The position numbers were made by a program, and so were the translations under genes. From a virus (Duplodnaviria; Caudoviricetes), in IMG/VR virus record IMGVR_UViG_2902511754_000003, positions 9,764 to 73,763 of that record: 64,000 bases of DNA. The stretch is one strand, 5' to 3'. Under the pieces are notes generated by a model that saw only the letters and a list, made by a program, of their open reading frames with translations, was not told where the DNA came from and made no database searches. The stretch's first letter is position 1. Each line of letters opens with the position of its first letter. Of the stretch, positions 24,066-64,000 are shown one piece after another.

Positions 24066-24079
24066 GACCCTAGGCACCA
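24066..24079 (+). other. att core: tRNA 3'-end duplicate GACCCTAGGCACCA (probably tRNA-Leu)
   Basis: Ends in ACCA, resembles recalled tRNA-Leu 3' ends, lies 32 nt from the integrase stop and is followed by a hairpin; no tRNA body upstream. Confidence 0.7.
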
Positions 24080-24084: not shown

Positions 24085-24134
24085 AAAAAAAAGTCGTAAG
24101 TTATTGATAAATCAATGGTTTACGGCTTTTTTAT
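24085..24134. terminator. Bidirectional hairpin after att core, overlapping int stop
   Basis: AAAAAAGTCGTAAGTTATTGAT / ATCAATGGTTTACGGCTTTTTT imperfect inverted repeat. Confidence 0.6.
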
Positions 24135-25203
24135 TTGTGCTTTTTTCGTTTATTTCGTCATTTTCTGCGGTGATTTTTGAAGTGTCGATCGCAGAGTTTG
24201 ACGTAAATTTGACGTGGTTTGCGTATCTCAACAAATGGTCAGCGTTGAGATGTGCATAACGTTTTACCATTTCCAAGGTTTCCCAACCCCCCAAATCTTT
24301 TAGCACCATCAATGGGGTGCCATTTTGAACATGCCAGCTCGCCCAGGTGTGACGCAAATCATGGAAACGGAAATTCTCAATTTTGCACCGTTTGAGTGCG
24401 CGTTTGAAATCGTAGGCATCAATTTCGCTGATTCGTTTTCCTTTTCCACGGTGAAAGACATAAGGTGAAATACGCTCAAATGTTCGCCTTTTCAAAATAG
24501 CCATTGCTTCGCCGCCTAATAACAAAGATCTTGCTTTGCCTGATTTGGCAATATCGCTTGTTACAATGGCTACTTGTCTTTCTATGTCAATTTTATCCCA
24601 TGTTAATGTGAGGATCTCACTCGCTCTTGCGCCGGTGGCGAGAGCAAATGCGCAGACATCTTTCATCCATTCCAGTTGTAATGCATTGATTAAGCTTTGC
24701 GCTTTTGTTTGGCTTATCCATCGTACTCTTATTTTAGGTTCTCTGTTGCGTGGAATGTGCGGTATGCTATCAATCCAACCTGCTTTTTGTGCAAGGGATA
24801 GTACACGCATAATAGAGGAGCGGTAACGATTTTGGGTGGAAGGAGAAATTGGCTCTTTTGTGCCTGTTTTGTGAGTGGGGAGGGCGTTTAGAATATCATC
24901 GGTTGTTAAAGAGCTAAGTAGCCGTCCTGATAATGCCTCACGCCAATATTCCACATGGCGGATTTTAGTGGTGAAATCCTTTTGCCCTTGTGAAATCTCG
25001 AGGAAACGAATTAACGCCTCTTCGATTGTTCTTTCCGGCTTTTTGTTGAGTTTTTCAACTTGCCAAAGTTCGTGTTTTAACTTGTCGTGATATTCTTGCG
25101 CGAGCCTTTTTTCAGTTGTTTTAGCAGAGCATCTAATTCTTTCTCCGCTCGGTGTGGCAATATCGATTTGCCATATCCCGTTTTTTGATTTTCTGATCGA
25201 CAT
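24112..25203 (-). CDS. int: Tyrosine integrase (start MSIRKSK)
   Basis: TGAR, FHDLRH, LGGW...RYAH catalytic motifs. Confidence 0.96.
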   Translation of the reverse strand: MSIRKSKNGIWQIDIATPSGERIRCSAKTTEKRLAQEYHDKLKHELWQVEKLNKKPERTIEEALIRFLEISQGQKDFTTKIRHVEYWREALSGRLLSSLTTDDILNALPTHKTGTKEPISPSTQNRYRSSIMRVLSLAQKAGWIDSIPHIPRNREPKIRVRWISQTKAQSLINALQLEWMKDVCAFALATGARASEILTLTWDKIDIERQVAIVTSDIAKSGKARSLLLGGEAMAILKRRTFERISPYVFHRGKGKRISEIDAYDFKRALKRCKIENFRFHDLRHTWASWHVQNGTPLMVLKDLGGWETLEMVKRYAHLNADHLLRYANHVKFTSNSAIDTSKITAENDEINEKSTNKKAVNH

Positions 25204-25409
25204 TTTCTTTTCTCCGAATCGCCGACCTGTATATCTCGGCATAAATTATTCTTCTTTTTCTTACTTTGTTCAAGAACTGATTTTTCTACAAGCCAAATCT
25301 TTGAAGATTTCATTTGAAAAAATCCCCATTCTTTTTTACGGGCAAAAACAGTAGAGTAGCTTAAATTCAGTAGTTTTGCCGCTTGCTTGACTGTTAATGT
25401 CTGCTCCAT
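25077..25409 (-). CDS. Excisionase-like HTH protein overlapping int start
   Basis: TLTVKQAAKLLNLSYSTV HTH_17-like; position upstream of int. Confidence 0.75.
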   Translation of the reverse strand: MEQTLTVKQAAKLLNLSYSTVFARKKEWGFFQMKSSKIWLVEKSVLEQSKKKKNNLCRDIQVGDSEKRKCRSENQKTGYGKSILPHRAEKELDALLKQLKKGSRKNITTS

Positions 25410-25974: not shown

Positions 25975-26373
25975 AATCTAAGGTGCAAGAAACCGCCACA
26001 CGATTTTCACGGGGAAAAGTGCGGTCGGTTTTGATTAAGTTTTAGATTACTTGGTAGTTATTGGACTTTGGGTTGTAATTGTTGAGATGTTTTAGCACTC
26101 GCCAATTACTCTCATAGTCATATTGGAAATCAGCCGTGAGGCGTTTCAGGAGTTGATGAACTTCCCGAATAGTGTGCTTATATTCGTAGGCTTGTCCGTA
26201 GATTGCACCGGAATATTTTGAACCGATAGTTTCCATTGCCGGATAAATCATTCGGCAAGTTTCTGTGCCTCGTAAGGCGATAAACCATATCCACGGCAGT
26301 AGTTGAAGTTCGTACTCGGTAAATTCAAAAGTGAATTTCTTTTCGGGTTCGGGTAAGGCGAGCTGTTTTGGCT
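25975..26373. repeat. ~390-bp direct repeat, copy 1 (ant C-terminus plus 3' element)
   Basis: Near-identical to 30045-30443. Confidence 0.9.
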
Positions 26374-26713
26374 CAAGTTGATATTTTCCTGTTTTGCGGA
26401 TTTGGGGTAGCACTTCTTCAAATACCCACGCTTCAAAAGGTTCAGCTTCGGGCTTTCTGCTTTTGATGATCAAGCGGTATAAATTTGGTTCGTTGATGTA
26501 AACTAATTCCTGATTTCCCTTTTCTGTAAGGGTGTAACGTTTCGTTACACCCTTTGCTTTGCAATGATCTTGCAATGCTTTACGTGAATTTGTGTAGCCT
26601 AAAATATCGCAAACGTCCGCTCCACAGAACCAATGTTCTTGATTTGGATCTGTGATAACACGAACTGCATTTGAATTAAAATTGAAAGATTGGAATTGAA
26701 TTTGATTTGACAT
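26042..26713 (-). CDS. Antirepressor-type protein, Bro-N domain plus P22-ant-like C-terminus
   Basis: WFCGADVCDILGYTNSRKAL...INEPNLYRLI...EVLPQIRKTG. Confidence 0.9.
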   Translation of the reverse strand: MSNQIQFQSFNFNSNAVRVITDPNQEHWFCGADVCDILGYTNSRKALQDHCKAKGVTKRYTLTEKGNQELVYINEPNLYRLIIKSRKPEAEPFEAWVFEEVLPQIRKTGKYQLEPKQLALPEPEKKFTFEFTEYELQLLPWIWFIALRGTETCRMIYPAMETIGSKYSGAIYGQAYEYKHTIREVHQLLKRLTADFQYDYESNWRVLKHLNNYNPKSNNYQVI

Positions 26714-29261: not shown

Positions 29262-29906
29262 TTAGCTCATTTCCTGAATGAGCTGTTGATAATATTCTTG
29301 GGCAGCACTAACACGTTCTTTGATTTTGTCGATGATGGCGTTATCACGTTTGACGGTCACGGTAGTGATCCGTTTGTCTTGCGGAATTTGTTCGACTAAA
29401 TCAATGTAGCGTTCGGGGCTATCATAACTACTGAGCATTTCGTAAGGAGTAGGGAAGAGGACAAAATCAATTTGTGCTTCTTCACAATCCCATAGCCACA
29501 TATAGCCTTGCATTTGAATGTCATAACCGGCTTTTTTCGCTTTATCTTCGGCTTCGTCTGTAAAGAACGGGTGAGTGCCAATATCCCACGAGCATTTTGT
29601 ATCAATAATGAGCTTGCGAGAGGGAACGTAAATATCACACTCTCCCGTGATCCATTCATTCTCTCGGCGTTCAGTGTTTTTCTTGAGGGGCAAGCCTCGT
29701 TTTCTGCCACTTAATTTAATGGCTTGTTCTTCCAGAAGATTCCCTTTTTCGGTGTATTTGTTGCCTTCAAAATCTTGATAACCGAACAGATCGAATTTAG
29801 CGATCTTTCTGACCGCACTTTTGGCGGTGTCGGAAAGTCCTTCTCCGCCTCTCTTCTGTGGCATTAAGTCAGCAAGACCTGAACATCTGGCTTTGAATTG
29901 GTACAT
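29262..29906 (-). CDS. PD-(D/E)XK exonuclease (YqaJ/lambda-exo-like)
   Basis: G..LEEQAI, GECDI, IIDTKCSW, QMQGYM motifs; same operon as RecT. Confidence 0.8.
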   Translation of the reverse strand: MYQFKARCSGLADLMPQKRGGEGLSDTAKSAVRKIAKFDLFGYQDFEGNKYTEKGNLLEEQAIKLSGRKRGLPLKKNTERRENEWITGECDIYVPSRKLIIDTKCSWDIGTHPFFTDEAEDKAKKAGYDIQMQGYMWLWDCEEAQIDFVLFPTPYEMLSSYDSPERYIDLVEQIPQDKRITTVTVKRDNAIIDKIKERVSAAQEYYQQLIQEMS

Positions 29907-30044: not shown

Positions 30045-30443
30045 AAATTTGGGTGCAAGAAACCGCCACACGATTTTCACGGGGAAAAGTGCGGTCGGTT
30101 TTGATTAAGTTTTAGATTACTTGGTAGTTATTAGATTTCGGGTTGTAATTCTCGAGGTGTTTTAGCACTCGCCAGTTACTCTCATAGTCGTATTTGAAAT
30201 CGGCTGTAAGGCGTTTCAGTAGCTTATGAACTTCCCGAATAGTGTGCTTATATTCGTAGGCTTGTCCGTAGATTGCACCGGAATATTTTGAACCGATAGT
30301 TTCCATTGCCGGATAAATCATTCGGCAAGTTTCTGTGCCTCGTAAGGCGATAAACCATATCCACGGCAGTAGTTGAAGTTCGTACTCGGTAAATTCAAAC
30401 TTGAATTTCTTTTCCGGCTCGGGCAAGGCGAGTTGTTTTGGCT
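30045..30443. repeat. ~390-bp direct repeat, copy 2
   Basis: Near-identical to 25975-26373. Confidence 0.9.
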
Positions 30444-30804
30444 GATTTTTCTCAATTAGAATTTTTTCAATTTGTTCATCACACCAAATAGCAAATTCAA
30501 CATTTAACCAACGAGCAAATGGAACAGCAAGACGACGGTGTAGCCAAGTGCCTTGTTGAGATAAATCTTTACCACCTTTGATTGTTTTTACGAAGTGGGA
30601 TTTCCCTACTTTGGCAGCGTTACCAGATTTTCTGGTTTCGGTCTTTTTGCAAAGGGTTTCAATATATTCTTGAGTTGTCGGTAACGTTAGCCAGTCATTA
30701 GGACGTTTATTAAAATGTTTTGCAATAGCCGTTGCATTAAGATATGCGTCATCTTGGAAGAAAACTTGAGTGCCGTTGTAATCGGCGGTGATGATATTTG
30801 TCAT
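30112..30804 (-). CDS. Antirepressor-type protein, KilA-N domain plus C-terminus shared with 26042-26713
   Basis: YLNATAIAKHFNKRPNDWL...GTWLHRRLAVPFARWL. Confidence 0.9.
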   Translation of the reverse strand: MTNIITADYNGTQVFFQDDAYLNATAIAKHFNKRPNDWLTLPTTQEYIETLCKKTETRKSGNAAKVGKSHFVKTIKGGKDLSQQGTWLHRRLAVPFARWLNVEFAIWCDEQIEKILIEKNQPKQLALPEPEKKFKFEFTEYELQLLPWIWFIALRGTETCRMIYPAMETIGSKYSGAIYGQAYEYKHTIREVHKLLKRLTADFKYDYESNWRVLKHLENYNPKSNNYQVI

Positions 30805-33000: not shown

Positions 33001-33939
33001 TTATAGTTTCTCCAACTTCTCCAATTCGTCATACTGTTCTTTGCTGAACTCATACATCCCACTATCACACAATTCTTGTAGTGTGGTTTCACCGTTGATG
33101 ATGTTTTGTTTGCATTGTTCAAAGGTTTCCTCATCAACAACTGTAATGATGTTATCCTCTTCTTTTTTGCCGCCCTCTTGCTTGTCCATTTCATCAATGC
33201 GGTATTTGTCGTTTCCATTTTCAATTTCAACCGCTCTTGCGATTTGTTCCTGACGTTCTTCCATTGGCATTTTACTGAGAACATATTTAATGGCTTTCCC
33301 AATGTACATTTCCAAATTCCACAAGGTGTAAGGCGAATAGCTGCCATTTTTCTTGCTTGGGCTGACTCCGGCAATTTGTAGGATTTTGCCAAAACTCACA
33401 AAGCGGTGAGAAATTTCATTGTTTTCTTTTGTGGAAACCAAAACGCCACGGAGATGACCTTCAACCCAAGCCGGTTCATAATCTTTTTGGTTATCAACAT
33501 CAGGGATATGTTTGACGACAGTGTCAAATCCATCGCTTACCATTTCAAATTGATCGCAGTCAAAAATAGGTGTCGCACGTAAATTAATGCCGGCACGTTT
33601 GGCTAATAATTGCCATCCTTTGTAGCCAATCTGAAATTCGGCATCTTTTTTGTACTTAACGATATAAGCAAGCCCCATATTTTTATTGAGTGGCAAGTCT
33701 AATTCTGCCGCTTGTAAACCGGACTTCACAATGCTTTCAGGGGTACAATAGACAAGCGAATCATCAAGCGCCACATTGAGTAATGTGGCTGCAAATTTCT
33801 CTTTCTTGTTTGGATCTGAGAGCAAACTTTTAATTCGGCTTTGGATACCTGCACTACCAATATAATGTTTGATATCGACTTTTCGTTGTTCTATCGGCGT
33901 TAGTTTTTTTTCTTTGCTTTCTGTTTTGTTATCTGTCAT
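33001..33939 (-). CDS. recT: RecT-family single-strand annealing protein
   Basis: CTPESIV...AAELDLP.....GLAYIV.Y...AEFQIGYKG. Confidence 0.92.
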   Translation of the reverse strand: MTDNKTESKEKKLTPIEQRKVDIKHYIGSAGIQSRIKSLLSDPNKKEKFAATLLNVALDDSLVYCTPESIVKSGLQAAELDLPLNKNMGLAYIVKYKKDAEFQIGYKGWQLLAKRAGINLRATPIFDCDQFEMVSDGFDTVVKHIPDVDNQKDYEPAWVEGHLRGVLVSTKENNEISHRFVSFGKILQIAGVSPSKKNGSYSPYTLWNLEMYIGKAIKYVLSKMPMEERQEQIARAVEIENGNDKYRIDEMDKQEGGKKEEDNIITVVDEETFEQCKQNIINGETTLQELCDSGMYEFSKEQYDELEKLEKL

Positions 33940-33951
33940 TTTTCACCTCAC

Positions 33952-34245
33952 TTAATCAGGGGCATACTCATTCATTCGTTTATCTAGACGTTGCTTTGCT
34001 ACATAAGCAATAGCTCGCTCTCGCACTTCGGTGAGCTTATAAAAAGCACCGGAACCGATAGCTAAATCGTGCAATGCTAACTCTTCATCGTTGTAGGCAA
34101 TGTATTCATTAATCGCATAAATAACGTTTTCATCTTCATTTTCAGCATCGGCTTTGATGGCTTCTATTTCTTGTTCGAGGGCAATTTCATAGCCGGCGAG
34201 GTTGTCTAGGTGTTCTTGATGGGCTGTGGCGAGAAAAGGTTTCAT
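33952..34245 (-). CDS. Hypothetical phage protein
   Basis: ORF coupled in early operon. Confidence 0.75.
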   Translation of the reverse strand: MKPFLATAHQEHLDNLAGYEIALEQEIEAIKADAENEDENVIYAINEYIAYNDEELALHDLAIGSGAFYKLTEVRERAIAYVAKQRLDKRMNEYAPD

Positions 34246-34727
34246 TTTGCTTGCTCCTGTGTGGCTTTTACCATTTCTGCCAACATTGCGAACATTGCCG
34301 GTTCAAGTACAATGGTGCGTGCGCTTGCACGGCGGTCTAAATGTAGGCGGATGTTGCCGTGTTTATCCACTAAATAACCGGTTAATCCATAAGGCGTGAA
34401 AGGCTTGCGATGTGGTTTTCGTGCCGGTTTTTGCAGCGTGGCTGGCTTCGGTGTTGTTCCTGTTAATTCAATTTTGGGTGATTCGGGTTTAACAGGTTTT
34501 GGTTCAATTTTTTTCATATTCGTCTTTCCTTTTTCATAATGCGGAATTTTTGTACTATTTAATAAATTGAATGAATCAATTCGTTTGTTTAAGGCGTTAA
34601 TCGCAACCATTTCGTTCATAAGAGGATAAGTGCGAATTTCCCGTTTATTATTTACCCAGAGTTCACCGTGATATTTTTTCGAATCAGCATTAAAAAGAAC
34701 GTGCATTTTGTAACTTTCAACTTTCAT
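34242..34727 (-). CDS. Hypothetical phage protein
   Basis: ORF coupled in early operon (4-nt overlaps). Confidence 0.75.
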   Translation of the reverse strand: MKVESYKMHVLFNADSKKYHGELWVNNKREIRTYPLMNEMVAINALNKRIDSFNLLNSTKIPHYEKGKTNMKKIEPKPVKPESPKIELTGTTPKPATLQKPARKPHRKPFTPYGLTGYLVDKHGNIRLHLDRRASARTIVLEPAMFAMLAEMVKATQEQAK

Positions 34728-35131
34728 TTTTTAGCCCTCAAAGTGCGGTCAATTTCCGCTTGTTTTTGAGCGGTATAAATTCGCAGTTCTTGTTCTGCTT
34801 GTGGGGTTAAATTAGGCGGTAAGCAAAGCCCGTTTTCATACACACCGCCTTTCAGTTCGCAACGGGTTTCAAGGCTGATTTGTTCGCTGACTTCGTTATT
34901 GTGCCAGTCGGTTGGGTTGCCCCACGCTTGAGAGACACTAAAAATGGCAATCACTACGATTGCGGTGGCGAGTAAAACAAGTGCGCCTTTGCCAAGAAAG
35001 GCGAGAAATTCAAAGATTGATTTGTGCATAATGGTGTCCTTTTTCGGTGGCTCGTTAAGAAATACGGTGCGAGAGCGCATTGCGGTTTGGTTTCGTTGTT
35101 GCCGCTTACGGCGTTTTTGTCGTTTGTTCAT
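34724..35131 (-). CDS. Hypothetical protein: Arg-rich N-terminus plus signal/TM segment; second possible start at MHKSIF
   Basis: AAGGA RBS before both ATGs. Confidence 0.7.
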   Translation of the reverse strand: MNKRQKRRKRQQRNQTAMRSRTVFLNEPPKKDTIMHKSIFEFLAFLGKGALVLLATAIVVIAIFSVSQAWGNPTDWHNNEVSEQISLETRCELKGGVYENGLCLPPNLTPQAEQELRIYTAQKQAEIDRTLRAKK

Positions 35132-35225
35132 TTTGTTTCCTTTTTAATCAATTTACTGAATTTAGGGTGCAAGAAACCGCCACACGATTTTCACGGGGAA
35201 AAGTGCGGTCGGTTTTGGTTGAGTT

Positions 35226-35867
35226 TTAGAAATTTATTTTGATCGCTTTTAAATCAAATTGGCGTAAGTGTTTTAGTACTCGCCAATTCGTCATTGGATC
35301 AATGTCAAAACTTGCGGTTAGTCGGTTTAAGATTTGGTTGGTTGAGCGTAGCACGCTTAAATATTCGTAAGCCTGTCCGTAAATTTGTCCGCTCATATTT
35401 GAACCTAAAACATCAAAGGCTTTTTCAATGTGTTGGAATGTGCCTACGCCACGTTTGAAAGCAAACCAGAGCCAAGCAAGTTCTTGAAGCTCATACTCGG
35501 TAAATTCAAAGGTGAATTTCTTTTCAGGTTCGGGTAAAGCAAGTTGTTTCGGTGGCTCAATCTGATTTAAGAACGCTCTGAGGACGACAAGGTGAAAAGC
35601 AGGGCTTATCCATGCAGCGTAGGCGATAACGAGTTCTTTACAGGCGTATGTGCCACCTTGTGAACCTCGAATTATTTTAAATGTACAGATCTGTACATTT
35701 GAATTTTCACTCTCAATTGCTGAAATAAGATCTTTTGTTTGATCTAAGCGAAGAAAATGAGAGGGGCGATGTTTTTCAGCTCCGCCACTAAGAGAGTGAA
35801 GATCATTTAAAGCGTAAAGGTTATCAAGAGTGCGGATTGAAGTGTTAAGAATAGTTAGATTTGACAT
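35226..35867 (-). CDS. Antirepressor-type protein, KilA-N plus P22-ant-like C-terminus
   Basis: LYALNDLH..SGG..KHRPSHFL...GTYACKELVIAYAAWISPAFHL. Confidence 0.9.
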   Translation of the reverse strand: MSNLTILNTSIRTLDNLYALNDLHSLSGGAEKHRPSHFLRLDQTKDLISAIESENSNVQICTFKIIRGSQGGTYACKELVIAYAAWISPAFHLVVLRAFLNQIEPPKQLALPEPEKKFTFEFTEYELQELAWLWFAFKRGVGTFQHIEKAFDVLGSNMSGQIYGQAYEYLSVLRSTNQILNRLTASFDIDPMTNWRVLKHLRQFDLKAIKINF

Positions 35868-36135
35868 ACTTTGTTCCTTCTACGAAAAGAAATGGTGATC
35901 GAGTGGTTCGTAGGCTGAACAAAGACAGCTGGACGTATTTCCCGAAGGTATTGTATTAGTCGCCCACTCGATCATAGATTGTAAATTACCTTTTTGTACA
36001 AAAATTGTGGGAAAGAGAAAAGAGATCACAAATTTTGGACACAAAAAAATCACGCTGACGGGGTGAATTACCGCTTTGTTTATAAGGCTACGACACCTTG
36101 GAATAAATCCTACCCTTGAACGTTGGGATTGTCAA
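35868..36135 (-). ncRNA. C4-like antisense RNA switch 3
   Basis: TTGACA-N17-TAGGAT; same core; CTTTGTT/CTACGA complementary to flanking AACAAAG/TCGTAG. Confidence 0.75.
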
Positions 36136-36148
36136 GGGTAGGGCGAGA

Positions 36149-36604
36149 TTATGCCCGCTCCATTCCTGCGTAGGAACCAGCAAATAGCTCTTTCTGTGCT
36201 GCAACCGCTAAGAAGTGGCTGCGATCGCGATAGAGTGAATTATTGGCAACACGGTTATCAATGTTGTGGAGTAGATATTGCGGAATGCTGATATTGATTC
36301 GTTGTTTTTTTCCGAAAAATTCAGACACATCAATATCAACTAATAACCAAGTGTCGCAATACTCATAATCTTCGTGTTTTTGATATTCGGCAAAACCGAG
36401 ATCTTTGATTGTAGAAAAATCAAAGCCTGTTTCTGCCATATCTTCAAGAACAAGGTGAATAGCGTCCGTTACCATTGGCAAAATATCTTCAATTTTGTCA
36501 GCGGCACTAATGCAGTGGTAAAGGTCGTTAGACAATGCGGGAACATAAAGCCCGATTGCGGTTTTATCATCTTTCGGCATTTCAACGCCGATAGTAAATA
36601 ACAT
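36149..36604 (-). CDS. hicB: HicB antitoxin
   Basis: VPAL...CISAAD...RINISIP RHH C-terminus; follows hicA. Confidence 0.9.
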   Translation of the reverse strand: MLFTIGVEMPKDDKTAIGLYVPALSNDLYHCISAADKIEDILPMVTDAIHLVLEDMAETGFDFSTIKDLGFAEYQKHEDYEYCDTWLLVDIDVSEFFGKKQRINISIPQYLLHNIDNRVANNSLYRDRSHFLAVAAQKELFAGSYAGMERA

Positions 36605-36632
36605 AAGCAAGCTCCTTGTTAGCTCGGCGGAG

Positions 36633-36815
36633 CTAAAGCCCCGCCGATTTTTTGATGGATTTTAAAGTTCCGATGGCTAAATCCTTTTTCGGGTGGGGAA
36701 CTGGAAAGGTTTTTCCGGTTTTAGGCGAGTACCAAATTTGATGATCGCCTTTTCCCATTCGTTTGAGATAACAGCCGTGAGCTTTAAGCTCCGAGATTAA
36801 GTCAGCTGAGTGCAT
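36633..36815 (-). CDS. hicA: HicA toxin (start MHSADL)
   Basis: GKGDHQIW...VPHPKKDLAIGTLKSIKKSAGL; promoter TTGAAA-N17-TATAAT at ~36846-36874. Confidence 0.92.
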   Translation of the reverse strand: MHSADLISELKAHGCYLKRMGKGDHQIWYSPKTGKTFPVPHPKKDLAIGTLKSIKKSAGL

Positions 36816-36901
36816 GCTTCCTCCTGTTGTCTTAATCTGGAAATAATTATACACACAACAAACACATGTTTCAATGAGTTTAATAATTTTAGGGAGAAAT
36901 A

Positions 36902-37459
36902 ATGCGAGTGAAACCACTCAAACCGAAGAAATGCAAAGTGTGCAGTAAAGAATTTACTCCGTTTAACTCAATGCAAAAGGCTTGTTCTCCAAAATGCGCA
37001 ATAGAGCTCGTTCGAAATAACTCACAGAAAGCCCGAGAGAAAGCGGAGATGCAAAGGCTAAGGGAACGTAAGGTTAAATTAAAAAGTCGCTCAGAATGGC
37101 TGAAAGAGGCGCAATCGGTATTTAATAAATTCATTCGTCTGAGGGATAAAGACGAGCCTTGTATCAGTTGTGGTCGCTATCATCAAGGGCAATGGCACGC
37201 AGGACATTATCGCAGTGTTGGGGCTGCACCTGAATTAAGATTTTGTGAGTTGAATGTCCATAAACAATGCCAACCGTGCAATAACCATAAAAGCGGAAAT
37301 GTGATTGAGTATCGAATTAATTTGGTAAGAAAAATCGGTGCAGATAAAGTCGAGTGGCTCGAACGCCAAGACCACGATCCGAAAAAGTACACGATCGAAG
37401 ATTGCAAAGAAATTATTCAGTATTACAAAGAACAAATTAAAGGGATGACTGATGCGTAA
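36902..37459 (+). CDS. ninG: NinG/Rap recombination endonuclease
   Basis: KCKVC...CSPKC, FIRLRD..EPCISCG, HAGHYRSVGA, QCQPCN. Confidence 0.93.
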   Translation: MRVKPLKPKKCKVCSKEFTPFNSMQKACSPKCAIELVRNNSQKAREKAEMQRLRERKVKLKSRSEWLKEAQSVFNKFIRLRDKDEPCISCGRYHQGQWHAGHYRSVGAAPELRFCELNVHKQCQPCNNHKSGNVIEYRINLVRKIGADKVEWLERQDHDPKKYTIEDCKEIIQYYKEQIKGMTDA

Positions 37460-37958
37460 ATTTAGCGATTTAACTTTAACAAGTGAGCAAGAACGATTTG
37501 TTGATGAATGGATGTACAAATGGGGAGCTTGGGTGCGTTCCGGTAGGCTTAATAAGGCTCAAGTGAATATTATCGCTAGATTAATGCAATCGGTAATTCC
37601 GGCTGAGCCCAGTGAGCCAATTTGTAATGATGATGAAGGAGTTATGATTAGTCAGGTTGTGGAACAATTCTTTGTAAAAAATGACCGAATTTTACATTTT
37701 ATTTTGTTTGCTTACTACGTAAATAAACGTACTGTAAATTTTATTGCCAATAAACTACGTGAAAATTGCGGAGAGATTCAAATGCAGCCTTGTGCAGGTA
37801 AACCAAATATTCGAGTGCCTAGCGCGCTTACTATGCGTAGAAAAATTGAAAAAGAATTGATGTTTGCAAAATCAATAATTCACGAATTGCTTGTAACTGG
37901 TTTTGTATTGTTGCGAACTGGTCGAGAAAATGCAAAAAATATTAAAATCACTTATTGA
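37452..37958 (+). CDS. Late antitermination protein Q-like
   Basis: Position after ninG and before pR'-like promoter; WMYKWGAW motif. Confidence 0.75.
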   Translation: MRKFSDLTLTSEQERFVDEWMYKWGAWVRSGRLNKAQVNIIARLMQSVIPAEPSEPICNDDEGVMISQVVEQFFVKNDRILHFILFAYYVNKRTVNFIANKLRENCGEIQMQPCAGKPNIRVPSALTMRRKIEKELMFAKSIIHELLVTGFVLLRTGRENAKNIKITY

Positions 37959-38070
37959 CTATCTTGATAACTTGATATACTATTTCAGTATATGGTGGTC
38001 GTTGTGTAACTGATGTTCACCGAATGAATTTAGTAGCCCTGATTGGTTTAACCCGTCAGGGCTTTTTATT
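37955..38070 (+). promoter_or_regulatory. pR'-like late promoter with downstream tR'-like terminator
   Basis: TTGACT(37955)-N17-TACTAT(37978); AGCCCTGA...TCAGGGCT-T5 at 38035-38067. Confidence 0.7.
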
Positions 38071-38126
38071 TGAGATGAATTAATCTATAACCGTTTATTA
38101 TTCGTCCATTTAGATAAGGACAAATT

Positions 38127-38651
38127 ATGTCATTTGAGAAACGAAAAAAGCTCGCTGATTTAAAAGCGGATAGCAATGCATTATTTGAACATCGTTTAGC
38201 TGTTTTGCTTGAGAAGAAAAAGCAAGTTGTTTCTTCAATACGTGACGAAGCGATTTACTTTCTTAATGAGCAAGGATTTTCTATCAATAAATCTGTCTTA
38301 GTGAATTCTCCACTACAAGTAGAGGCTGATTACAAAGGCTCAATGAAAATTAAGATTGTGCTTTCAGATCCTGCTGATAGCTTTATGGGAGCTGATATTA
38401 TTCTTGATGTTGATTATTTAAAGCAAAAATTTGAGTTTACTGTAGATTTATTTAGACAATCATTTGATACCATTTGGGAAGATGATTTAGACAAAGCAAT
38501 TTTAGACTATATCAGCCAAAATGAGAAAATTTCTGAACTCAATGCGGCAGATATTAACGGGAATTATAAAATCACTTTAATTAAATCACAAAATCAAAAA
38601 ACGGAATTTGAAAATATTTCCGATGTATTGAAATTCGTTTTAGAAATGTAA
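38127..38651 (+). CDS. AT-rich hypothetical moron between Q and lysis
   Basis: 174 aa, flanked by terminator hairpins. Confidence 0.8.
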   Translation: MSFEKRKKLADLKADSNALFEHRLAVLLEKKKQVVSSIRDEAIYFLNEQGFSINKSVLVNSPLQVEADYKGSMKIKIVLSDPADSFMGADIILDVDYLKQKFEFTVDLFRQSFDTIWEDDLDKAILDYISQNEKISELNAADINGNYKITLIKSQNQKTEFENISDVLKFVLEM

Positions 38652-38827
38652 AGAAGGAAAGACGGGGCTAGTGCTAGACGCTATCGGTGGAGAGGGTTAG
38701 AAAGTGTACATATCTAATTTTTCAGTGCTTCCGTGAGCTTAAGGCTCGACCGAATTAAAAATTAATTGATGAGATAACTTACAAGCTCAGTTTGATAACT
38801 GGGCTTTTTTATATAACAGGTTTTATT

Positions 38828-39151
38828 ATGCCGACTAAAGATCCAAATAGCTGGGAATCTTTTTTACGCTGGCTCCCTTTGGTGATTATTGGGTTATTTG
38901 CCGGCGTAGCGAAATATGCAAGTGATATTCAAGCCGGAAAGCTCCACTTTAGCGTGGGGCTTTTTTTATGCCAAGTGGTTGTATCTATGTTTGCCGGTTG
39001 GATTGGTGGATTGTTATGTTTATATTCCGGTTTAGGGCTTGAGCTTACCTGTGTTGGTGCTGGACTTGCTGGTTACGGTGGGGGCGCAGTGCTTAATGCA
39101 ATTTGGCGCGGTTTCTTCGTGTCTAAACTGGGGATTAAAGATGAAAATTAG
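38828..39151 (+). CDS. Holin (three TM)
   Basis: Start MPTKDPNSW; upstream of endolysin. Confidence 0.82.
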   Translation: MPTKDPNSWESFLRWLPLVIIGLFAGVAKYASDIQAGKLHFSVGLFLCQVVVSMFAGWIGGLLCLYSGLGLELTCVGAGLAGYGGGAVLNAIWRGFFVSKLGIKDEN

Positions 39152-39584
39152 TGAAAAAGGAATTGAATTTATTCGTCAGGCAGAGGGTGAGAAATTAACT
39201 GCATATCCTGACATTGTTGGGGTTTGGACGATTGGTGTCGGGCATACCGGATTTGTGGATGGAAAATCGGTCTCACGTGGAATGACAATTACGAAAGAAA
39301 AATCCAAAGAGATTTTGATTGCGGATTTAAAGCGTTTTGAACGTGCGGTCATTTCTGCCGTTAAAGTTTCCCTCACTCAAAATCAGTTTGATGCACTTGT
39401 TAGCCTTGCATTTAATATTGGCGAAGGTGCTTTTACCCGTTCAACGCTGGTGAAAAAACTCAATGCCGGCGATTATAAAGGCGCAGCGGAACAATTCCTT
39501 GTTTGGAAAAATGCCGGTGGGCGAGTGTCACAAGGTTTACTCAATCGGCGTAAACGCGAGAAAGCGATGTTTGAGGTGTCTTGA
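39141..39584 (+). CDS. Endolysin, GH24 lysozyme (start MKISEKG)
   Basis: EGEKLTAYPD.VGVWTIGVGH, QNQFDALVS, GLLNRR..E. Confidence 0.95.
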   Translation: MKISEKGIEFIRQAEGEKLTAYPDIVGVWTIGVGHTGFVDGKSVSRGMTITKEKSKEILIADLKRFERAVISAVKVSLTQNQFDALVSLAFNIGEGAFTRSTLVKKLNAGDYKGAAEQFLVWKNAGGRVSQGLLNRRKREKAMFEVS

Positions 39585-39970
39585 TGTGGTGGATGTTTAT
39601 TATTAAAAAACTCAGTGCAAATCTATTGGCTTACGGTTTCAAGCACCTGAATAAGATTGCGGTATTTTTTGTCGCCATCTTTGTTATGGCGTTACTTTAT
39701 ATACAACACGCAAATAAATTAAATATCGAGCGTCAATCTGCGGTGATTAATTCGTTGCACGAGAAAGTGATTCAGCGGGACAAGATTATTGACGAATTAC
39801 ATGAAGATGTTGGCGAGCAACGCAAAATAGCTGAAAAGCGTTTAGAGCAAGAACAAACGATTCGGGAACAAAGTTATGCGCAAATTCAATCTATTAAAAA
39901 AATGCTGGAAAGTAATCAATGTAGCGATGTTACTTTGCCTGCCGGTGTTGTTAACGAATTGCGCAAGTAA
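39581..39970 (+). CDS. Inner-membrane spanin (Rz-like)
   Basis: TM plus coiled coil after endolysin. Confidence 0.75.
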   Translation: MMWWMFIIKKLSANLLAYGFKHLNKIAVFFVAIFVMALLYIQHANKLNIERQSAVINSLHEKVIQRDKIIDELHEDVGEQRKIAEKRLEQEQTIREQSYAQIQSIKKMLESNQCSDVTLPAGVVNELRK

Positions 39971-40187
39971 GCCTGAAATTGAGTATCGTACGATTGCTTT
40001 TTCACCACCGGTGAGTTTGCTCGCACCTTGTATGCAGCCAACATTTCACGGTTCAACTTTTGGGGAAACGGTGGAGTATGCCTTGTTGCTTAAACAAGAG
40101 TTAAAGTTATGCGGCAATAAGGTTGAAGGGATTCGGGAATATGTAGAGGCAAGAAAAAGTGCGGTGGAAAATGGGAAAGAAAAATAA
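39926..40187 (+). CDS. Outer-membrane spanin lipoprotein (Rz1-like)
   Basis: MLLCLPVLLTNC lipobox, PPVSLLAPC. Confidence 0.78.
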
Positions 40188-40228
40188 CTACCCAAATTTT
40201 TTAGGGGGATTTGTTTTAAGGATTTTCT

Positions 40229-40774
40229 ATGCTGGACGTGAAAGGAAAATCCACGTCTAAAGGGCGTGGGCAGCCTACAAAATATAAACCGGAGTATGTA
40301 ATCCAAGTTGAAAAACTGTGTTTACTTGGGGCAACAGATAGAGATATAGCAGATTTTTTTGAAGTTGCTGAATCTACCATCAATAACTGGAAAATTGAAT
40401 ATCCTGAATTCTTGGAGTCCATAAAAAAAGGGAAGTTATTAGCAGATGCAAATGTAGCAAATAGTCTCTATAAAAGAGCATTAGGCTATGAAGCTCCTGA
40501 TATTGATATTCGGGTGATTGAAAATAAAATTGTCGAAACGCCGTTAATTAAGCATTATCCACCCGATCCAACATCAGCTATTTTTTGGCTCAAAAACAGA
40601 CAGCCTGATAAATGGCGGGATAAGCAAATACAAGAAGTCTCTGGTGTAGATGGCAGTGCGGTACAAATCGAAGTAAAAAAGGAAATCGATCTTTCGGTAT
40701 ATTCTGATGATGAACTTAGACTTCTTAGAAAGCTTAAACATAAACAATCTGAATTTGGAGTTAGCGAGGCGTAA
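40229..40774 (+). CDS. Terminase small subunit
   Basis: GQPTKY...LLGATD.DIADFF.V...SLYKRALG...FWLKNR. Confidence 0.9.
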   Translation: MLDVKGKSTSKGRGQPTKYKPEYVIQVEKLCLLGATDRDIADFFEVAESTINNWKIEYPEFLESIKKGKLLADANVANSLYKRALGYEAPDIDIRVIENKIVETPLIKHYPPDPTSAIFWLKNRQPDKWRDKQIQEVSGVDGSAVQIEVKKEIDLSVYSDDELRLLRKLKHKQSEFGVSEA

Positions 40775-42161
40775 TCTATTTGATTTTACCCTTGAGACGA
40801 AACCCGACTTTGTGACGGGGTGGTTTAATGAAATCGTAGCCAAAGAGTTACAGCAATTCTATGAAGATGTAAAAGCGGGTAAGCAGCCTCGATTAATGAT
40901 ATTTGCTCCGCCCCGTAGCGGAAAAAGTGAATTATTTAGTCGCCGTTTCCCTGCATGGGTATTTGGTAAAGATCCTGATTTACAGATTATTGCTTGTTCC
41001 TATTCTGCCGATCTTGCAAGCCGAATGAATCGTGATGTGCAGCGAATAATGGATGATGAAAGTTATCACGGTATTTTTCCTAATTCATCATTAAATGAAA
41101 AGCGTATTGCAACTGTATCCGGTCAGCCTTTACGCAATAGCGAGATTTTTGAAATAGCAGGACACCGTGGTGCATATCGTTCTGCCGGTGTGGGTGGAGG
41201 TATCACAGGTATGGGGGCTGATATAGCAATTATTGACGACCCTGTAAAAGATGCCAAAGAAGCCAATTCTCAAACCGTGCGTGATAGCGTGTGGGATTGG
41301 TACACTACGACACTTTATACCCGTTTGTCGCCCAATAGTGGCGTTCTGCTGGGAATGACAAGATGGCACGAAGACGATCTAGCCGGACGGCTTATTGAAG
41401 AAATGAAAAAAGACGGCGATCAGTGGCGAATTGTTTCTTTTCCCGCAATTGCCGAACAAGATGAAGAATTTCGCAAAGAGGGGGAGCCGTTACATCCTGA
41501 ACGATTTAATTTAGAACGTTTGATCAAGATAAAAAAAGCGGTGGGTTCTCATACTTGGAACGCCTTGTATCAACAACGCCCTACAAGTAAAGGTGGAGGC
41601 ATAATCAAAGGGGCTTGGTTCCCTCGTTATCAAGTACCGCCGATTATTAAAATTAAAGGTATTTACGCTGATACGGCTCAAAAAGCAAAAGAACACAACG
41701 ACTACTCCGTATTTCTCGTTGCCGGCAAGGGGGCTGATGGAAAAGTTTATATTCTTGATCTGATTCGAGGTAAGTGGGAGGCCCCCGAACTTGAGCAAAA
41801 ACTCAAGGATGTTTGGAATCATCAAAAATCAATTCGAAATACTGGTTATCTCTCTCGTGTAAACATTGAGGATAAAGCAAGCGGTACATCGTTGATTCAA
41901 CGTATTCAGCGTGAAGCAAGAATACCAATTAAGGCTATTCAGGTTGATGCCGATAAATATACTCGAGTGCTTGGTGTTCAAGGGTATATCGAAAGCGGTT
42001 ATGTGTGTTTACCTGAAAATGCTTACTGGGTAAAAGACTTCGTTGCAGAATGTGAAGCATTTACCGCAACAGATAGTCACGCCCACGACGATCAGGTTGA
42101 TAGCCTAGTAATGGCTATTGCTGATTTGCTTGGAAAACCAAAATCCCTACTGGATTGCTAA
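40707..42161 (+). CDS. Terminase large subunit
   Basis: PPRSGKSE Walker A, IIDDPVK, MTRWHEDDL, HDDQVD. Confidence 0.95.
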   Translation: MMNLDFLESLNINNLNLELARRNLFDFTLETKPDFVTGWFNEIVAKELQQFYEDVKAGKQPRLMIFAPPRSGKSELFSRRFPAWVFGKDPDLQIIACSYSADLASRMNRDVQRIMDDESYHGIFPNSSLNEKRIATVSGQPLRNSEIFEIAGHRGAYRSAGVGGGITGMGADIAIIDDPVKDAKEANSQTVRDSVWDWYTTTLYTRLSPNSGVLLGMTRWHEDDLAGRLIEEMKKDGDQWRIVSFPAIAEQDEEFRKEGEPLHPERFNLERLIKIKKAVGSHTWNALYQQRPTSKGGGIIKGAWFPRYQVPPIIKIKGIYADTAQKAKEHNDYSVFLVAGKGADGKVYILDLIRGKWEAPELEQKLKDVWNHQKSIRNTGYLSRVNIEDKASGTSLIQRIQREARIPIKAIQVDADKYTRVLGVQGYIESGYVCLPENAYWVKDFVAECEAFTATDSHAHDDQVDSLVMAIADLLGKPKSLLDC

Positions 42162-42163
42162 TT

Positions 42164-43459
42164 ATGAAAATTAATGACAATTTACAATCTTTTGCTTTAA
42201 AACTCGGTGTAAAACAGGAAAAAACCACCTATGTTAGAAGCTCTACACTTACCGAAGATAGAGAACAGCTTAATGCACTATGGGCTGAAAATTGGGTTGC
42301 CCGTAAAATTTGCATAAAACGCCCACAAGACATGGTTCGCCGTTGGCGTGATGTGTACTCAAACGATTTAGAGGCAGAGCAACTTGAAGCCTTCGAAAAG
42401 TTAGAACGGAAACTAAAATTGCGTGAAATCCTCGGTGAAGCGTTATCGTGGTCAAGCTTATATGGCTCTGTGGCAATTTTAATCGTTACCGATACGCTAA
42501 ATTTGAATGTTCCACTACAACCAACAGAGCAAATTAAGCGGTTAGTTATTCTGCCCAAATGGAAAATATCGCCTTACGGGGAGAAAGATGAAGATGTACT
42601 CTCGCCTAATTTTTCAGGTTATTCTTACTATCAAATTAATGGTGCATTAAGTGTACATTACTCAAGATTAGTTATTTTAAATGCGGCCAAATCCCCCTTA
42701 TCTGATGAAGATATTTGGGGGATTTCTGATTTAGAAGCCGTAATTGAAGTGTTAAAACGATTTGATGGTGCAAGTAAAAATATCGGCGATTTAATATACG
42801 AGAGCAAAATTGATATTTTCAAGATAGCGGGGCTTTCCGACAAAATTAGTGCTGGTATGGAAGCTGATGTAGCGAAAGCAATTAGTGCTGTTCAAGATAT
42901 TAAATCTGCGACAAATAGCCTACTTCTTGACCCTGAAAATGAATACGAACAAAAAGAGCTTAGCTTTGGCGGATTGAAAGATCTGTTGGTTGAATTTCGT
43001 AATGCCGTAGCCGGTGCTGTGGATATGCCGGTTACGATTTTATTCGGGCAAAGTGCGGCTGGATTCGCAAGTGGTCAAGAAGACATTGATAACTATCACG
43101 AAAGTGTACACCGATTGCAAGAAGAGCGATTACGACCCGTGTTAGAACGTATAGATCCTTTGTTGTGCAATATGGCATTCGGAAACTATCCGCAAGATTG
43201 GTGGTTTGAATTTGTACCGCTGAAAGAACTCACTCAAGAACAACAAATCAATATGTTGAATACCTTTGCAAGTGCGAGCAATGTCTTTATTCAAAATGGG
43301 ATATTAACCGAAAATCAGATAGCAAACGAACTTAAGGAAAGTGGCTTGTTTGCTAATATTTCTGCCGAAGATATTGAGGATATGAATAATGTTGATGAAT
43401 TTGCCGGAGATTTTGAAAAATCAGAAGAGATGGAAGGCACGGAAATTCAAGCCGGTTAA
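42164..43459 (+). CDS. Portal protein (DUF1073-like)
   Basis: Follows TerL; AGAVDMPVTILFGQSAAGFASG, YHE...LQE. Confidence 0.88.
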   Translation: MKINDNLQSFALKLGVKQEKTTYVRSSTLTEDREQLNALWAENWVARKICIKRPQDMVRRWRDVYSNDLEAEQLEAFEKLERKLKLREILGEALSWSSLYGSVAILIVTDTLNLNVPLQPTEQIKRLVILPKWKISPYGEKDEDVLSPNFSGYSYYQINGALSVHYSRLVILNAAKSPLSDEDIWGISDLEAVIEVLKRFDGASKNIGDLIYESKIDIFKIAGLSDKISAGMEADVAKAISAVQDIKSATNSLLLDPENEYEQKELSFGGLKDLLVEFRNAVAGAVDMPVTILFGQSAAGFASGQEDIDNYHESVHRLQEERLRPVLERIDPLLCNMAFGNYPQDWWFEFVPLKELTQEQQINMLNTFASASNVFIQNGILTENQIANELKESGLFANISAEDIEDMNNVDEFAGDFEKSEEMEGTEIQAG

Positions 43460-51687: not shown

Positions 51688-51857
51688 AAGTAAATCAATC
51701 TGAAAGTAAGGTTGACTGGTTCGTATTTACGCCAATTGTTAAAAATTTCTGTTCACTTAATGAGTTAAGGTCGGTTTATTCAATAGCCGACCTTTTATCT
51801 TTCCATGAAGTAATCGTTGAAATGAATCAAATGGAGCAACGCAATGCTACTCGATGA
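51651..51857 (+). CDS. -1 frameshift extension of tail chaperone (...KVDWFVFTPIVKNFCSLNELRSVYSIADLLSFHEVI...)
   Basis: Open -1 frame from G-GGG-GGA to TGA 51857, overlapping the tape-measure start. Confidence 0.72.
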   Translation: MAERYGEQSQDVEVNQSESKVDWFVFTPIVKNFCSLNELRSVYSIADLLSFHEVIVEMNQMEQRNATR

Positions 51858-53958
51858 ATTATTGATTAAGATCGGAATTGATGCCGACAGCCAAGCGATA
51901 CAACAGTTTGAGAAATTTCTTAAATCGATTGGTGACGGAACAGAAGAAGCGGCAGAAAGTTTGGGTGAGTTCGCACGAGCCATTGAAGATGCGGTAAATG
52001 AAGCAACTGAACAGGTTAAAGATATGCCGGAGTTTTCCGGATATATTGAATCGCTCGAAAAGTTGCTGGTCGAAACCGAAAATCTCTCACAAGATGAAGC
52101 ATTAGACGCTTGGATAAATAAACTCATTGAAGGTGACGAATTGCTGTCTGCTTTTGGTGAAGGGTTTATTGAAAATAGCGAAGAGCTTGAGCAAGAGTTA
52201 AAAAAAACCGGTATTGGCGCAGAACACGTTGGCGTTGTTATCGGTAAGCTCAAATCTGCAATTGAGCAGAAGAAAAAAGCAGTCGAGCAAGACACAAAAG
52301 CAGTCGGTGAAAATACAGAAGCTGAAAAGGAAAATGCTGAAAGTGCGGACGATTTAGCCAATAAAATGATTAGCCTATGGGCGACAAAATACGGTGCTGA
52401 TGGACTAATCGAAAAGTTTGAATTGCTTGGATTTAGCATTAGTAAAACTACGCTCAAAGTTGCGGCCTTTGGTGCGGCTTTTTATGCTGCGACTATAGGT
52501 GTAAAAAACTTTGTTGATGCGAATCTTAATGCGCTTGATGAAATCAAACAACTTACCGCCGTAACAAATGAATCTGCCAATCAGATTTATCTTCTTGGAA
52601 AAGTAGCAGAGGTAAACGGCTCATCCGCTCAAGCTGCACAATCGTCAATTGAGGGATTATCCCGGGTGATTGGTGAAGCGGCTGCTGGTATTGGTCGAGG
52701 GGCTAAATCCTTTGAGCAATACGGATTAAGTGCGAAAAAAGCCAACGGCGATGTGAAAACCTCAAGCGAAATGCTGGGTGAAATTTCTGACAAAATGCAG
52801 AAGATGAGTGAGCAAGAGCAAATTTCGATGCTTGCCAAGCTCGGCATTGATGGCTCAATGATCCAAACCTTGCGTCTTGGTAATGATGAATTACGGGAGC
52901 AAATCGAACTCGCAAATGCGCTGACACTTGGTGTAGGTAATGCTGAAAATGCGGAAACTGCTGCAGCATTTAAAGATGCATTAACTCAAGTTTCGCAAGT
53001 CCTAACCGCTATCGGTGAATATCTTGCGCTCAGAATCGCCCCTTCTATTCAACGGCTCGCTGAGCGGTTTACAAAATGGTTTACCGAAAATAACGAGTTT
53101 GTAAAAACGGTATTAAATGGTTTTGGCAAAGTACTTTCATTTTTGTTTGAGCTTGCCGCCGCTATTGACAACGTAGTTGAGCATACTATCGGCTGGAAAA
53201 CAACGATTTATATTGTAGGGGTGGCGTTGTTATGGCTTAGTCGCAAAATGTTGCTTGCGTTTGCAACTAACCCAATCGGTTTAGTGATTGCAGCAATTGC
53301 TGCTTTATTCCTACTTGTTGATGACTTCATCACTTATCTTGAGGGTGGGGAGACCGCACTTGGAGACTTTTAGAAACCATTTAAGACTGCGCTTTTATGG
53401 GTCAAAACCACATGGCAAAACTTTGTTGATAATTTCAGTGTAGATCCGATTGGTGCAACATTATCGCTTGTTACTGATTTAATCAAACTACCGTTTGAGC
53501 TTGGTTTTGCACTTGTTATTGGGCTGTGGAATCTTTTTACCGGAGAACAACTTGATTTAGATGTTATTGAAAAAGGTTTTAATAAAGTCACAGACTGGAT
53601 TAAAGATCCGTTCAGGAAGGCGTTTGATTGGGTGAAAGGTTACTATGACCAATATATTGCCCCGATTGTTGATACAGTGAAAGGTTGGTTTGGTAGTGAT
53701 GAATCTGCGCCAACGGGAACGGTGAGTCAAAACACGCAAGCTTATGATGCAATGATGTTTGATCCATCTTATGCAGCAGCGCCACAAGTTGCGGCCGCGG
53801 GTGTGAGCAGACAAACATCGAATGCTGATAACAGTGTGAAGAACAGTAATAACAAAATCACCATTACGCAAAACATTCAAGGTGCTGAAAATCCTAAGAT
53901 GATTGCCGATCAAGTGGTGAGAGCGGTTAATAATCAATTGTCACCTATTGTGGGGTAG
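51844..53958 (+). pseudogene. Tape measure protein interrupted by in-frame TAG (53371-53373)
   Basis: Frame stays open after TAG for 194 codons and joins ORF 53632-53958; context GDF*KPF suggests TGG>TAG. Confidence 0.85.
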
Positions 53959-63150: not shown

Positions 63151-63743
63151 TGGCAATTTATTTTAAAGACGGATTTTTTAATGATGATTTTGGCGGGTTT
63201 GTGCCGGAAGGCGCGATAGAAATCAGCGAAGAAAAATATATTGAGTTGCTTGAGGGGCAAGAGCAAGGAAAACAAATCATCAGTGATAAACAAGGAACCC
63301 CAGTACTGCTTGAGCCACAACCCAGTCCGGCTCACGAATTAAAAGATGGTGAGTGGATTATTTCAAAAACCAAAATAACCGCACTTACCACCCAACGCAA
63401 AACAACCCTTTTACAACGCATTGCGGACAAAACCGATCAATTTAAAATGCAATATCTGCAAGGGTATTCTCAAGCCGAGATTGACAGTTTTTACCGTCAA
63501 GAACGTGAAGCGAGAAATGAATTGCCGGAAATGATTTTAACTGAAATCTTCAAGGGTCGTGACGACTTAAAAAACATTGAAGAGTTGAAACAAAAAGTCA
63601 TCGAAAAAGCGGATTTGTTCGCCATTGTGATGGGTAAACTTTTTGCAATTAAGCAAAATTTTGAAACCCATATCGAACAAGCGCAAACGTTAGAAGAACT
63701 AGACCAAATTGAACAGGAGATTGAGCAATGGCAAAAACTGTAA
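63150..63743 (+). CDS. Tail fibre assembly/chaperone protein (start MAIYFKDG)
   Basis: TAATG coupling; VPEGAIEIS..KY.ELL.GQ..GK.I. Confidence 0.85.
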   Translation: MAIYFKDGFFNDDFGGFVPEGAIEISEEKYIELLEGQEQGKQIISDKQGTPVLLEPQPSPAHELKDGEWIISKTKITALTTQRKTTLLQRIADKTDQFKMQYLQGYSQAEIDSFYRQEREARNELPEMILTEIFKGRDDLKNIEELKQKVIEKADLFAIVMGKLFAIKQNFETHIEQAQTLEELDQIEQEIEQWQKL

Positions 63744-64000
63744 AACACAAGTTAAAAAATTGGGGTTATAACGTCATTATCGCGATTGACCAATTATTTA
63801 ACGCACTCACGGGCGGTGGTGCAGATGAAACATTATCCAGCCGCACCTACCGCCGTGCGGTTTTAACGCAAGGTAAGCCGAAAAAACGTTGGCAAGTGTT
63901 ATATCGCCTGATTAACGGGCTGTTTTTTGACAAAAATCACTGTAAAACCGCTTATGAAAGTGAGCTTTCCCGCAAACAATATCCACAGGATTTTGCATAA
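63728..64000 (+). CDS. Conserved phage protein, near-identical to 5141-5413
   Basis: Direct comparison of translations. Confidence 0.85.
   Translation: MAKTVKHKLKNWGYNVIIAIDQLFNALTGGGADETLSSRTYRRAVLTQGKPKKRWQVLYRLINGLFFDKNHCKTAYESELSRKQYPQDFA

Follow-up and report, generated by a model that had tools for sequence, protein, structure and literature searches.

The window analysed here, a stretch of 64,000 nucleotides, corresponds to bases 9764–73763 of a 73.7-kb IMG/VR "provirus" record in which two prophages lie in tandem. The first one, judged to be P2/HP1-like from its ORF layout, occupies window positions 1–23630 and a further 9.7 kb to the left (G000:1–9763), and comprises tail and capsid genes, an ORF of 726 aa which by its size and position is probably the replication gene, and a repressor with HTH_3 and S24 domains (G000:7808–8503), the single one in the record. 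About 480 bp and a core sequence resembling the 3' end of a tRNA separate the portal gene of this prophage from a second integrase gene. The second prophage (prophage 2) starts at this core, with the integrase directly after it, and reaches the end of the record (Table 1). As the core GACCCTAGGCACCA matches only once in the window and no second copy was found there, attR is expected beyond the end of the record, and since this end falls inside an ORF the record is taken to be a draft contig.

The host of prophage 2 is a rodent-associated member of the Pasteurellaceae. Its NinG protein is nearest to those of Rodentibacter prophages (86–93% identity), followed by those of Haemophilus/Aggregatibacter prophages (75–80%), and DNA of the prophage is also present in mouse gut metagenome runs. 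A search for the region around the ant3 gene (the joint described below) in the genus (13 genomes) and in the family (235 genomes) gave no genome with >88% identity, so the host genome, or sister genomes with prophage 2, are absent among the species representatives; a 55-kb provirus (G005) has patches alone in common with the window.

Table 1. Features of prophage 2 and their positions in the window.
Feature	Position	Strand	Basis or remark
att core GACCCTAGGCACCA, tRNA 3'-end-like	24066..24079	.	left end of prophage 2
integrase	24112..25242	-	Phage_integrase 2.2e-30
excisionase	25077..25409	-	phrog_2907 excisionase 5.5e-27
antirepressor 1 (ant1)	26042..26713	-	Bro-N + P22_AR_C
c4-like RNA of ant1	26756-26842	-	Rfam sRNA-Xcc1
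recombination exonuclease (exo)	29262..29906	-	phrog_5715 7e-102; 97% identity to closest relative
antirepressor 2 (ant2)	30112..30804	-	KilA-N + P22_AR_C
c4-like RNA of ant2	30849-30935	-	Rfam sRNA-Xcc1
RecT-like annealing protein	33001..33939	-	RecT 8e-14; 94% identity to closest relative
w_135, last early-left gene before the joint	34724..35131	-	phrog_16199
90-nt element, with uptake sequence AAGTGCGGT	35141..35230	.	follows each early-left ant gene
antirepressor 3 (ant3), gene at the joint	35226..35867	-	KilA-N + P22_AR_C
c4-like small RNA ahead of ant3	35890..35972	-	Rfam sRNA-Xcc1, RF02221, 57 bits
HicB antitoxin	36149..36610	-	HicB_lk_antitox 7.3e-25
HicA toxin	36633..36815	-	HicA_toxin 3.3e-18
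hicA-ninG spacer, hicA promoter/operator then ninG ribosome-binding site	36816..36901	.	86 bp
NinG/Rap-like endonuclease	36902..37459	+	NinG 1.6e-70
Q-type late antiterminator	37452..37958	+	Phage_antitermQ 3.4e-16; phrog_943
PR'-like promoter after Q	37955-37983		promoter scan
lysis cassette: holin, lysozyme, spanins	38792..40187	+	
small and large terminase, portal	40229..43459	+	colinear with S1249
tape-measure gene, in-frame TAG at 53371-53373	51844..53958	+	alignment of S1249 694-aa protein
fourth sRNA-Xcc1 match	58335-58418	+	upstream of fourth antirepressor
fourth antirepressor	58397-59110		KilA-N/P22_AR_C; in baseplate-region insertion
P22_AR_N protein	59181-59750		in baseplate-region insertion
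last late gene	63728..64000	+	homolog of S1249's last gene; cut by record end

Four antirepressor (ant) genes occur in prophage 2, each with a match to Rfam sRNA-Xcc1 directly upstream (n = 4, 56–67 bits). Within the early-left arm, a gene for a Panacea/SocA-domain antitoxin-like protein (4e-21) overlaps that of a 136-aa partner without family match (31958–32925), and the two may represent a second toxin-antitoxin pair in the early-left operon. In the same arm, 15 tandem 18-bp units (28735–29112) lie within a gene for a YdcK beta-solenoid/bactofilin-like protein (28548–29204), where they mirror the hexapeptide repeat of the protein.

The late region was compared with that of S1249, a serum-inducible Aggregatibacter phage of the Aaphi23/S1249 temperate myovirus group (PMC10087258; for an overview of the group see PMC6776037). 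As in this group, NinG and Q are encoded ahead of the lysis genes, the integrase and excisionase lie at one prophage end, and the late module (terminase, portal, head, sheath, tube, tape measure, baseplate and fibres) is colinear with that of S1249, down to the terminal gene of the latter. Within it the tape-measure gene is interrupted by an amber codon. The 694-aa tape-measure protein of S1249 aligns end to end in one frame, with Tyr at the TAG site, and because the 195 codons downstream are in frame and conserved the nonsense mutation is either recent or a sequencing error; a scan around the TAG gave no match. An inactivating mutation of this kind is a hallmark of defective prophages and points to a decaying prophage, with a sequencing error as the alternative.

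Relative to S1249, the baseplate region contains an insertion (57040–59750) that includes a 364-aa ORF without Pfam match. A MuF-like head protein (43389–44771) bears a C-terminal ADP-ribosyltransferase domain (ADPrib_exo_Tox 5e-08, ART 2.4e-06), and its S1249 homolog matches the first 214 residues only.

The spacer between hicA and ninG

The spacer is bounded by the ATG of hicA at 36815 (minus strand; GGAGG ribosome-binding site at 36820–36824) and that of ninG at 36902 (plus strand; ribosome-binding site at 36891–36896), in agreement with a sequence-only reading of this DNA, which had counted 86 bp between the two starts and recognized a hicA promoter in them. The promoter scan located this leftward promoter at 36874->36846 (near-consensus TTGAAA-17-TATAAT, 11 of 12 matches) and found no rightward promoter above the scan threshold on the plus strand between 35000 and 37955. 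HicA and HicB domains are encoded in one operon with its own promoter and, on the basis of domains, gene order and promoter, hicAB is predicted to be a type II toxin-antitoxin system.

The sequence-only reading had further regarded the spacer as the scar of a multi-kb deletion, a view that the relatives contradict. The order hicB-hicA, leftward and 66–170 bp upstream of ninG, recurs in 13 relatives from several Pasteurellaceae genera (H. influenzae and relatives, Canicola haemoglobinophilus and Rodentibacter mrazii). The left neighbour of hicB is ninB or a methylase gene in every case, and most of these loci also have O/P, cII or cI within the fetched flank. Loci with the same abutment thus keep nin-region or replication genes further left; the compact junction is shared, the absence of the module is not. 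Moreover, four genera share a conserved stretch of about 75 bp upstream of hicA that takes in the -10 box, and a prophage of R. mrazii could be aligned by blastn contiguously through ant, hicBA, the spacer and ninG (window 35816–37440), with a second alignment covering 35484–36073. As the arrangement recurs in relatives and the spacer is conserved, hicAB is considered a moron (a self-contained add-on gene cassette) habitually placed beside ninG, and the spacer is its native edge, untouched. A toxin-antitoxin moron in this position is normal and recurs among lambdoid phages of the Pasteurellaceae; it does not mark a deletion.

An assembly break at 36816–36901, which had also been considered, is refuted by a single 23.7-kb contig that starts at 35496 and crosses the spacer in X1, a near-identical sample assembled independently (k=31, Logan contigs). 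In addition, a 3.3-kb contig from a mouse gut metagenome covers 36041–37084.

The absent block and the joint at ant3

Immunity and replication genes are absent from prophage 2 as assembled. No immunity or replication family was detected with Pfam and PHROG in ORFs of at least about 50 aa from 24112 to about 43500 and in the late-region ORFs that have no S1249 homolog. A six-frame HMM search of the 73.7-kb record (Peptidase_S24, HTH_3, Phage_rep_O, Phage_lambda_P, DnaB_C, IstB, P22_Cro, CII/CP76 and NinB/DUF1367) found no cI/S24, HTH_3, Cro, cII, O, P, DnaB, DnaC-type loader or NinB in 24066–64000; the lack of cI/S24, cro, cII, initiator and helicase genes perceived from the letters alone is thereby borne out. 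All matches of this search fall outside prophage 2, namely the HTH_3+S24 repressor and a weak Cro-like match left of the window, in the P2/HP1-like prophage (G000:7590–8467), and an HTH_3 match at about 10599–10730. Likewise, tblastn with cI, cro, cII, O, P, methylase and NinB of S1249 and 587AP2 retrieved nothing in the window. Prophage 2 has neither a cI/cro switch between the early-left operon and replication genes nor an O-type initiator and a P-/DnaC-type loader. The S24 repressor of the record was considered as its cI and rejected, as it sits beside a Cox-like gene and the 726-aa ORF of the P2/HP1-like prophage. The genes thought to be retained (int/xis, exo/recT for recombination, Q, lysis, terminase and head) were all matched in the scans, and ninG and the tail genes are kept as well.

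Gene order was mapped at 105 NinG loci from IMG/VR and species-representative genomes. Immunity/replication homologs occur at 86 of the 90 loci for which at least 3 kb upstream were available, so the absence of the module is not a matter of chance; among close relatives such genes are missing from the window alone, and the other three loci without a match have a distant NinG (42–58% identity). The record stops before attR and inside an ORF, and the genes might be located elsewhere in prophage 2, either past 64000 or in a non-canonical place. This is extremely improbable: every relative has the module between its early-left arm and ninG, and the sole repressor of the record belongs to the P2/HP1-like neighbour. 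Furthermore, colinearity extends to the terminal gene of S1249, which is about 250 bp from the end of the S1249 prophage, so that only attR is expected past 64000, with no room for the module.

The joint consists of ant3 and its 3' flank (35131–35530), about 1.5 kb left of the spacer, where the early-left arm meets a nin-region cassette composed of ant, c4-like RNA and hicBA. Leftward from hicB are found a promoter (TTGACA-17-TAGGAT, 36135->36107), the c4-like RNA, ant3, the 90-nt element and then, at once, the start of w_135. A doubtful 57-aa ORF (35880–36053) is probably the c4-like RNA and not a protein gene. The 90-nt element is present in three copies (at 25957, 30027 and 35141) that are 90–100% alike.

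The two halves of ant3 differ in their relationships. The 5' half is of nin-region type, the encoded N-terminal KilA-N half and the upstream RNA being nearest to nin-region ants (Pasteurella oralis 77%, R. mrazii 69%), whereas the 3' half (35223–35525) is a repeat of early-left type. For the C-terminal P22_AR_C half together with the 3' flank, the nearest ants (88–89%) stand in other contexts, early-left wherever this was mapped; that of S1249 is 83% identical. An exact-pattern scan of IMG/VR and JGI metagenomes for the middle of ant3 returned only relatives of 66–85%, all in other contexts, and a protein search with w_161 retrieved two distant loci alone.

From the start of w_135 to that of ninG there are 1.77 kb in the window but 10.35 kb in the closest relative (IMGVR_UViG_2791354948_000007), which indicates that about 9–10 kb are missing; the distance from the w_135 homolog to ninG is 7.1–9.6 kb in 11 further relatives. 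Hence, as regards the multi-kb deletion proposed from the letters alone, the block is indeed absent from the prophage as assembled, and its placement at 36816–36901 is not sustained. The lack of a lytic module of about 9–10 kb is a second hallmark of a defective prophage, one that depends on the contig having been joined correctly.

The block would have comprised the distal early-left genes, cI, cro, cII, an O-like initiator, a DnaC-like loader, a methylase gene and ninB. Its most probable cause of loss would be homologous recombination between two directly oriented ant cassettes, one in the early-left operon just after w_135 and the other in the nin region, where ninB would be followed by ant, c4-like RNA, leftward hicB-hicA and then ninG. 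Both cassettes are on the same strand in intact relatives, so that recombination would delete the whole interval between the early-left and the nin-region ant, leaving ant3 with its 3' flank (35131–35530) as the surviving hybrid joint. With PL/PR and their operators gone, ninG-Q would have no upstream promoter and the late operon would be silent; prophage 2 alone would then be capable of neither repression nor replication nor induction. Morons with promoters of their own could still be expressed, namely the four ant genes gated by c4 RNA, hicAB and the Panacea/SocA pair. An amber codon in the tape-measure gene would fit relaxed selection.

Assembly evidence and competing explanations

The contigs of X1 support both arms of the joint separately. 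A 4.8-kb contig covers 30403–35194 with zero differences to the window, and the 23.7-kb contig shows none over the part compared (35496–42000). The left arm reaches 35194 and the right arm starts from 35496, with 35223–35525 forming a separate 303-bp contig with a depth of 23.6 vs. 16 and 14.4 for its neighbours; this ant repeat of about 303 bp at the joint is the only place where the independent contigs break. A loose-end contig joins GGGGATTTTGGGGAAGATAAAACCGCACCG to 35201 onward, a joint absent from the record. This 30-mer is the exact ninB 3' end and terminator arm of R. mrazii, the only match in an exact-pattern scan of IMG/VR. Judging from this ninB-ant joint, X1 contains another, related prophage or else the block that is "missing" here. 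Two further flanks at the ant repeat are missing from the window; a loose end at 35977 turned out to be the window's own ant1 leader. Segments at 30000–30400 have double depth and a 90%-identical variant in X1, which indicates a second related element.

The joint between w_135 and ant3 was not seen in three other samples (X3, X4 and X6), in which uncovered parts (e.g., 34753–35200 and 36775–37183) were not counted as absence and may reflect merging with a high-depth relative. In X3 and X4, the NinG 3' end, Q, lysis and terminase genes (37183–42000) have 110–350x depth, and the left arm (30403–34753) and ant3-hicBA 14–19x; in these samples a relative that shares the late genes seems to be present in multiple copies or to replicate actively.

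These contig data fit equally well a true deletion accompanied by a second, intact relative, and a loop collapse or chimera produced by the assembler at the ant repeat. In the latter case the prophage, or two related ones in the same genome, would be intact and a short-read assembler would have stepped through the identical ant 3' segment of about 303–325 bp (35201/35223–35525), either collapsing the loop from cI to ninB or fusing the left and right arms of two prophages. The contig breaks at 35194/35496 with the repeat apart at raised depth, the ninB end joined to 35201, the two extra flanks, the double depth with its 90% variant and the draft nature of a record that ends inside an ORF all speak for such an artefact. 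Nevertheless, assemblers mostly break at unresolved repeats and seldom mis-join, and the same assembly resolved the three copies of the 90-nt element and a 300-nt pair at 86%. In X1 both arms show the same depth, that of a single copy, and a second prophage with a ninB-ant joint accounts equally for the extra flank; the amber codon separately suggests that the prophage is non-functional. Polylysogeny with NinG-type phages is seen in R. trehalosifermentans and two strains of H. influenzae, each of which has two NinG loci. An assembly artefact, in whichever of these forms, is on balance unlikely, if far from negligible. The behaviour of assemblers, the neighbouring repeats that were resolved and the amber codon favour a true deletion: the region 24066–64000 is probably a defective (cryptic) temperate myovirus prophage of S1249/Aaphi23 type that has lost about 9–10 kb.

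A functional but unconventional element, either a helper-dependent prophage or a GTA-like or lateral-transducing packager, was among the suggestions of the sequence-only reading and found no support here. In the helper-dependent version, the four c4-RNA-gated antirepressors and the P22_AR_N protein would act in trans on the repressor of a co-resident partner, the Q and replication functions of which would switch on the lysis and packaging genes of prophage 2. It is true that reading frames are open for int/xis, Q, lysis, terminase and almost every virion gene, that these five proteins, with no own repressor present, could act in trans only, and that there are signs of a related second element, the late region shared in the sister samples having 7–20 times the depth of the left arm. 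However, prophage 2 has no replication origin or initiator, no promoter for ninG-Q and an amber stop in its tape-measure gene. Lateral transduction requires replication in situ, and neither initiator nor loader was found. GTAs are much smaller head-tail clusters under host control and are devoid of int/xis and Q-type control, whereas prophage 2 carries int, xis and Q as well as antirepressors and a recombination module. Phage satellites (PICI/P4-like) are small islands that have a repressor and replication genes of their own and no virion genes; prophage 2 shows the opposite pattern, a full virion set without repressor or replication genes. The same deleted architecture occurs at none of the 105 NinG loci, and the deleted form is thus not a conserved lineage. 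A functional role of this sort, the helper-dependent version included, is quite improbable.

Beyond this prophage, directly oriented paralogous ant cassettes are plausible recombination handles that could excise the immunity and replication block in one step, and the ant repeats are also exactly where short-read contigs can mis-join. The 73.7-kb record is rated 100% complete. In view of the risk of mis-joining at repeats, "module-less" prophages in draft genomes and provirus catalogues need a check of the junction before a biological reading.

Comparison with known systems

Prophage 2 is a structural member of the S1249/Aaphi23 group that lacks the immunity and replication genes of the group. 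It shares with S1249 the order int, early-left operon, NinG, Q, lysis, terminase, head and contractile tail, with colinear late genes of 38–85% amino acid identity where homologs exist (77% for NinG), and an early-left ant with a C-terminal half 83% identical to that of ant3. In contrast to prophage 2, S1249 carries cI, cro, Ant, O, P, methylase, NinB and three small ORFs in about 5 kb directly left of NinG, has no hicAB adjoining NinG, and its tape-measure gene is uninterrupted.

On both arms, prophage 2 is most closely related to IMGVR_UViG_2791354948_000007, a 24-kb Rodentibacter-type fragment (exo 97%, RecT 94%, w_135 86%, NinG 93% and Q 91% identity) with the same 90-nt element after its early-left ant. 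The 10.35-kb interval of this fragment contains ant, several unknown genes and the genes for a 238-aa cI with HTH_3 and S24 domains, Cro (P22_Cro type), cII (CP76 type), an O-like protein, a loader of IstB/DnaC type, a methylase and NinB; unlike in prophage 2 there is no hicAB cassette, and NinB abuts NinG. The prophage of R. mrazii Ppn418 (NZ_MLHG01000016.1) has the identical leftward order of ant, c4-like region, hicB and hicA, with ninG 66 bp right of hicA and a contiguous alignment of 71–72% to window 35484–37440. It differs in having ninB (plus strand) directly left of ant (minus strand), with cII and cI further left, and in its ant, the C-terminal half of which is unrelated to that of ant3.

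As in the immI region of P1/P7, where the c4 antisense RNA controls ant, a small structured RNA precedes each ant gene of prophage 2; the immI of P1 works alongside a primary repressor (C1), whereas prophage 2 has none.

Unless the contig was mis-joined at the ant repeat, prophage 2 looks like another case of a known kind, the crippled cryptic prophage. The cryptic lambdoid prophages of E. coli K-12 (DLP12) are non-inducible chromosomal passengers from which the immunity/replication region has been deleted and which keep int, nin-region genes, a Q homolog and lysis genes. Prophages of DLP12 type are far more decayed, with most virion genes gone, whereas the virion set of prophage 2 is almost complete and only one nonsense codon is visible, for which reason its loss looks recent.
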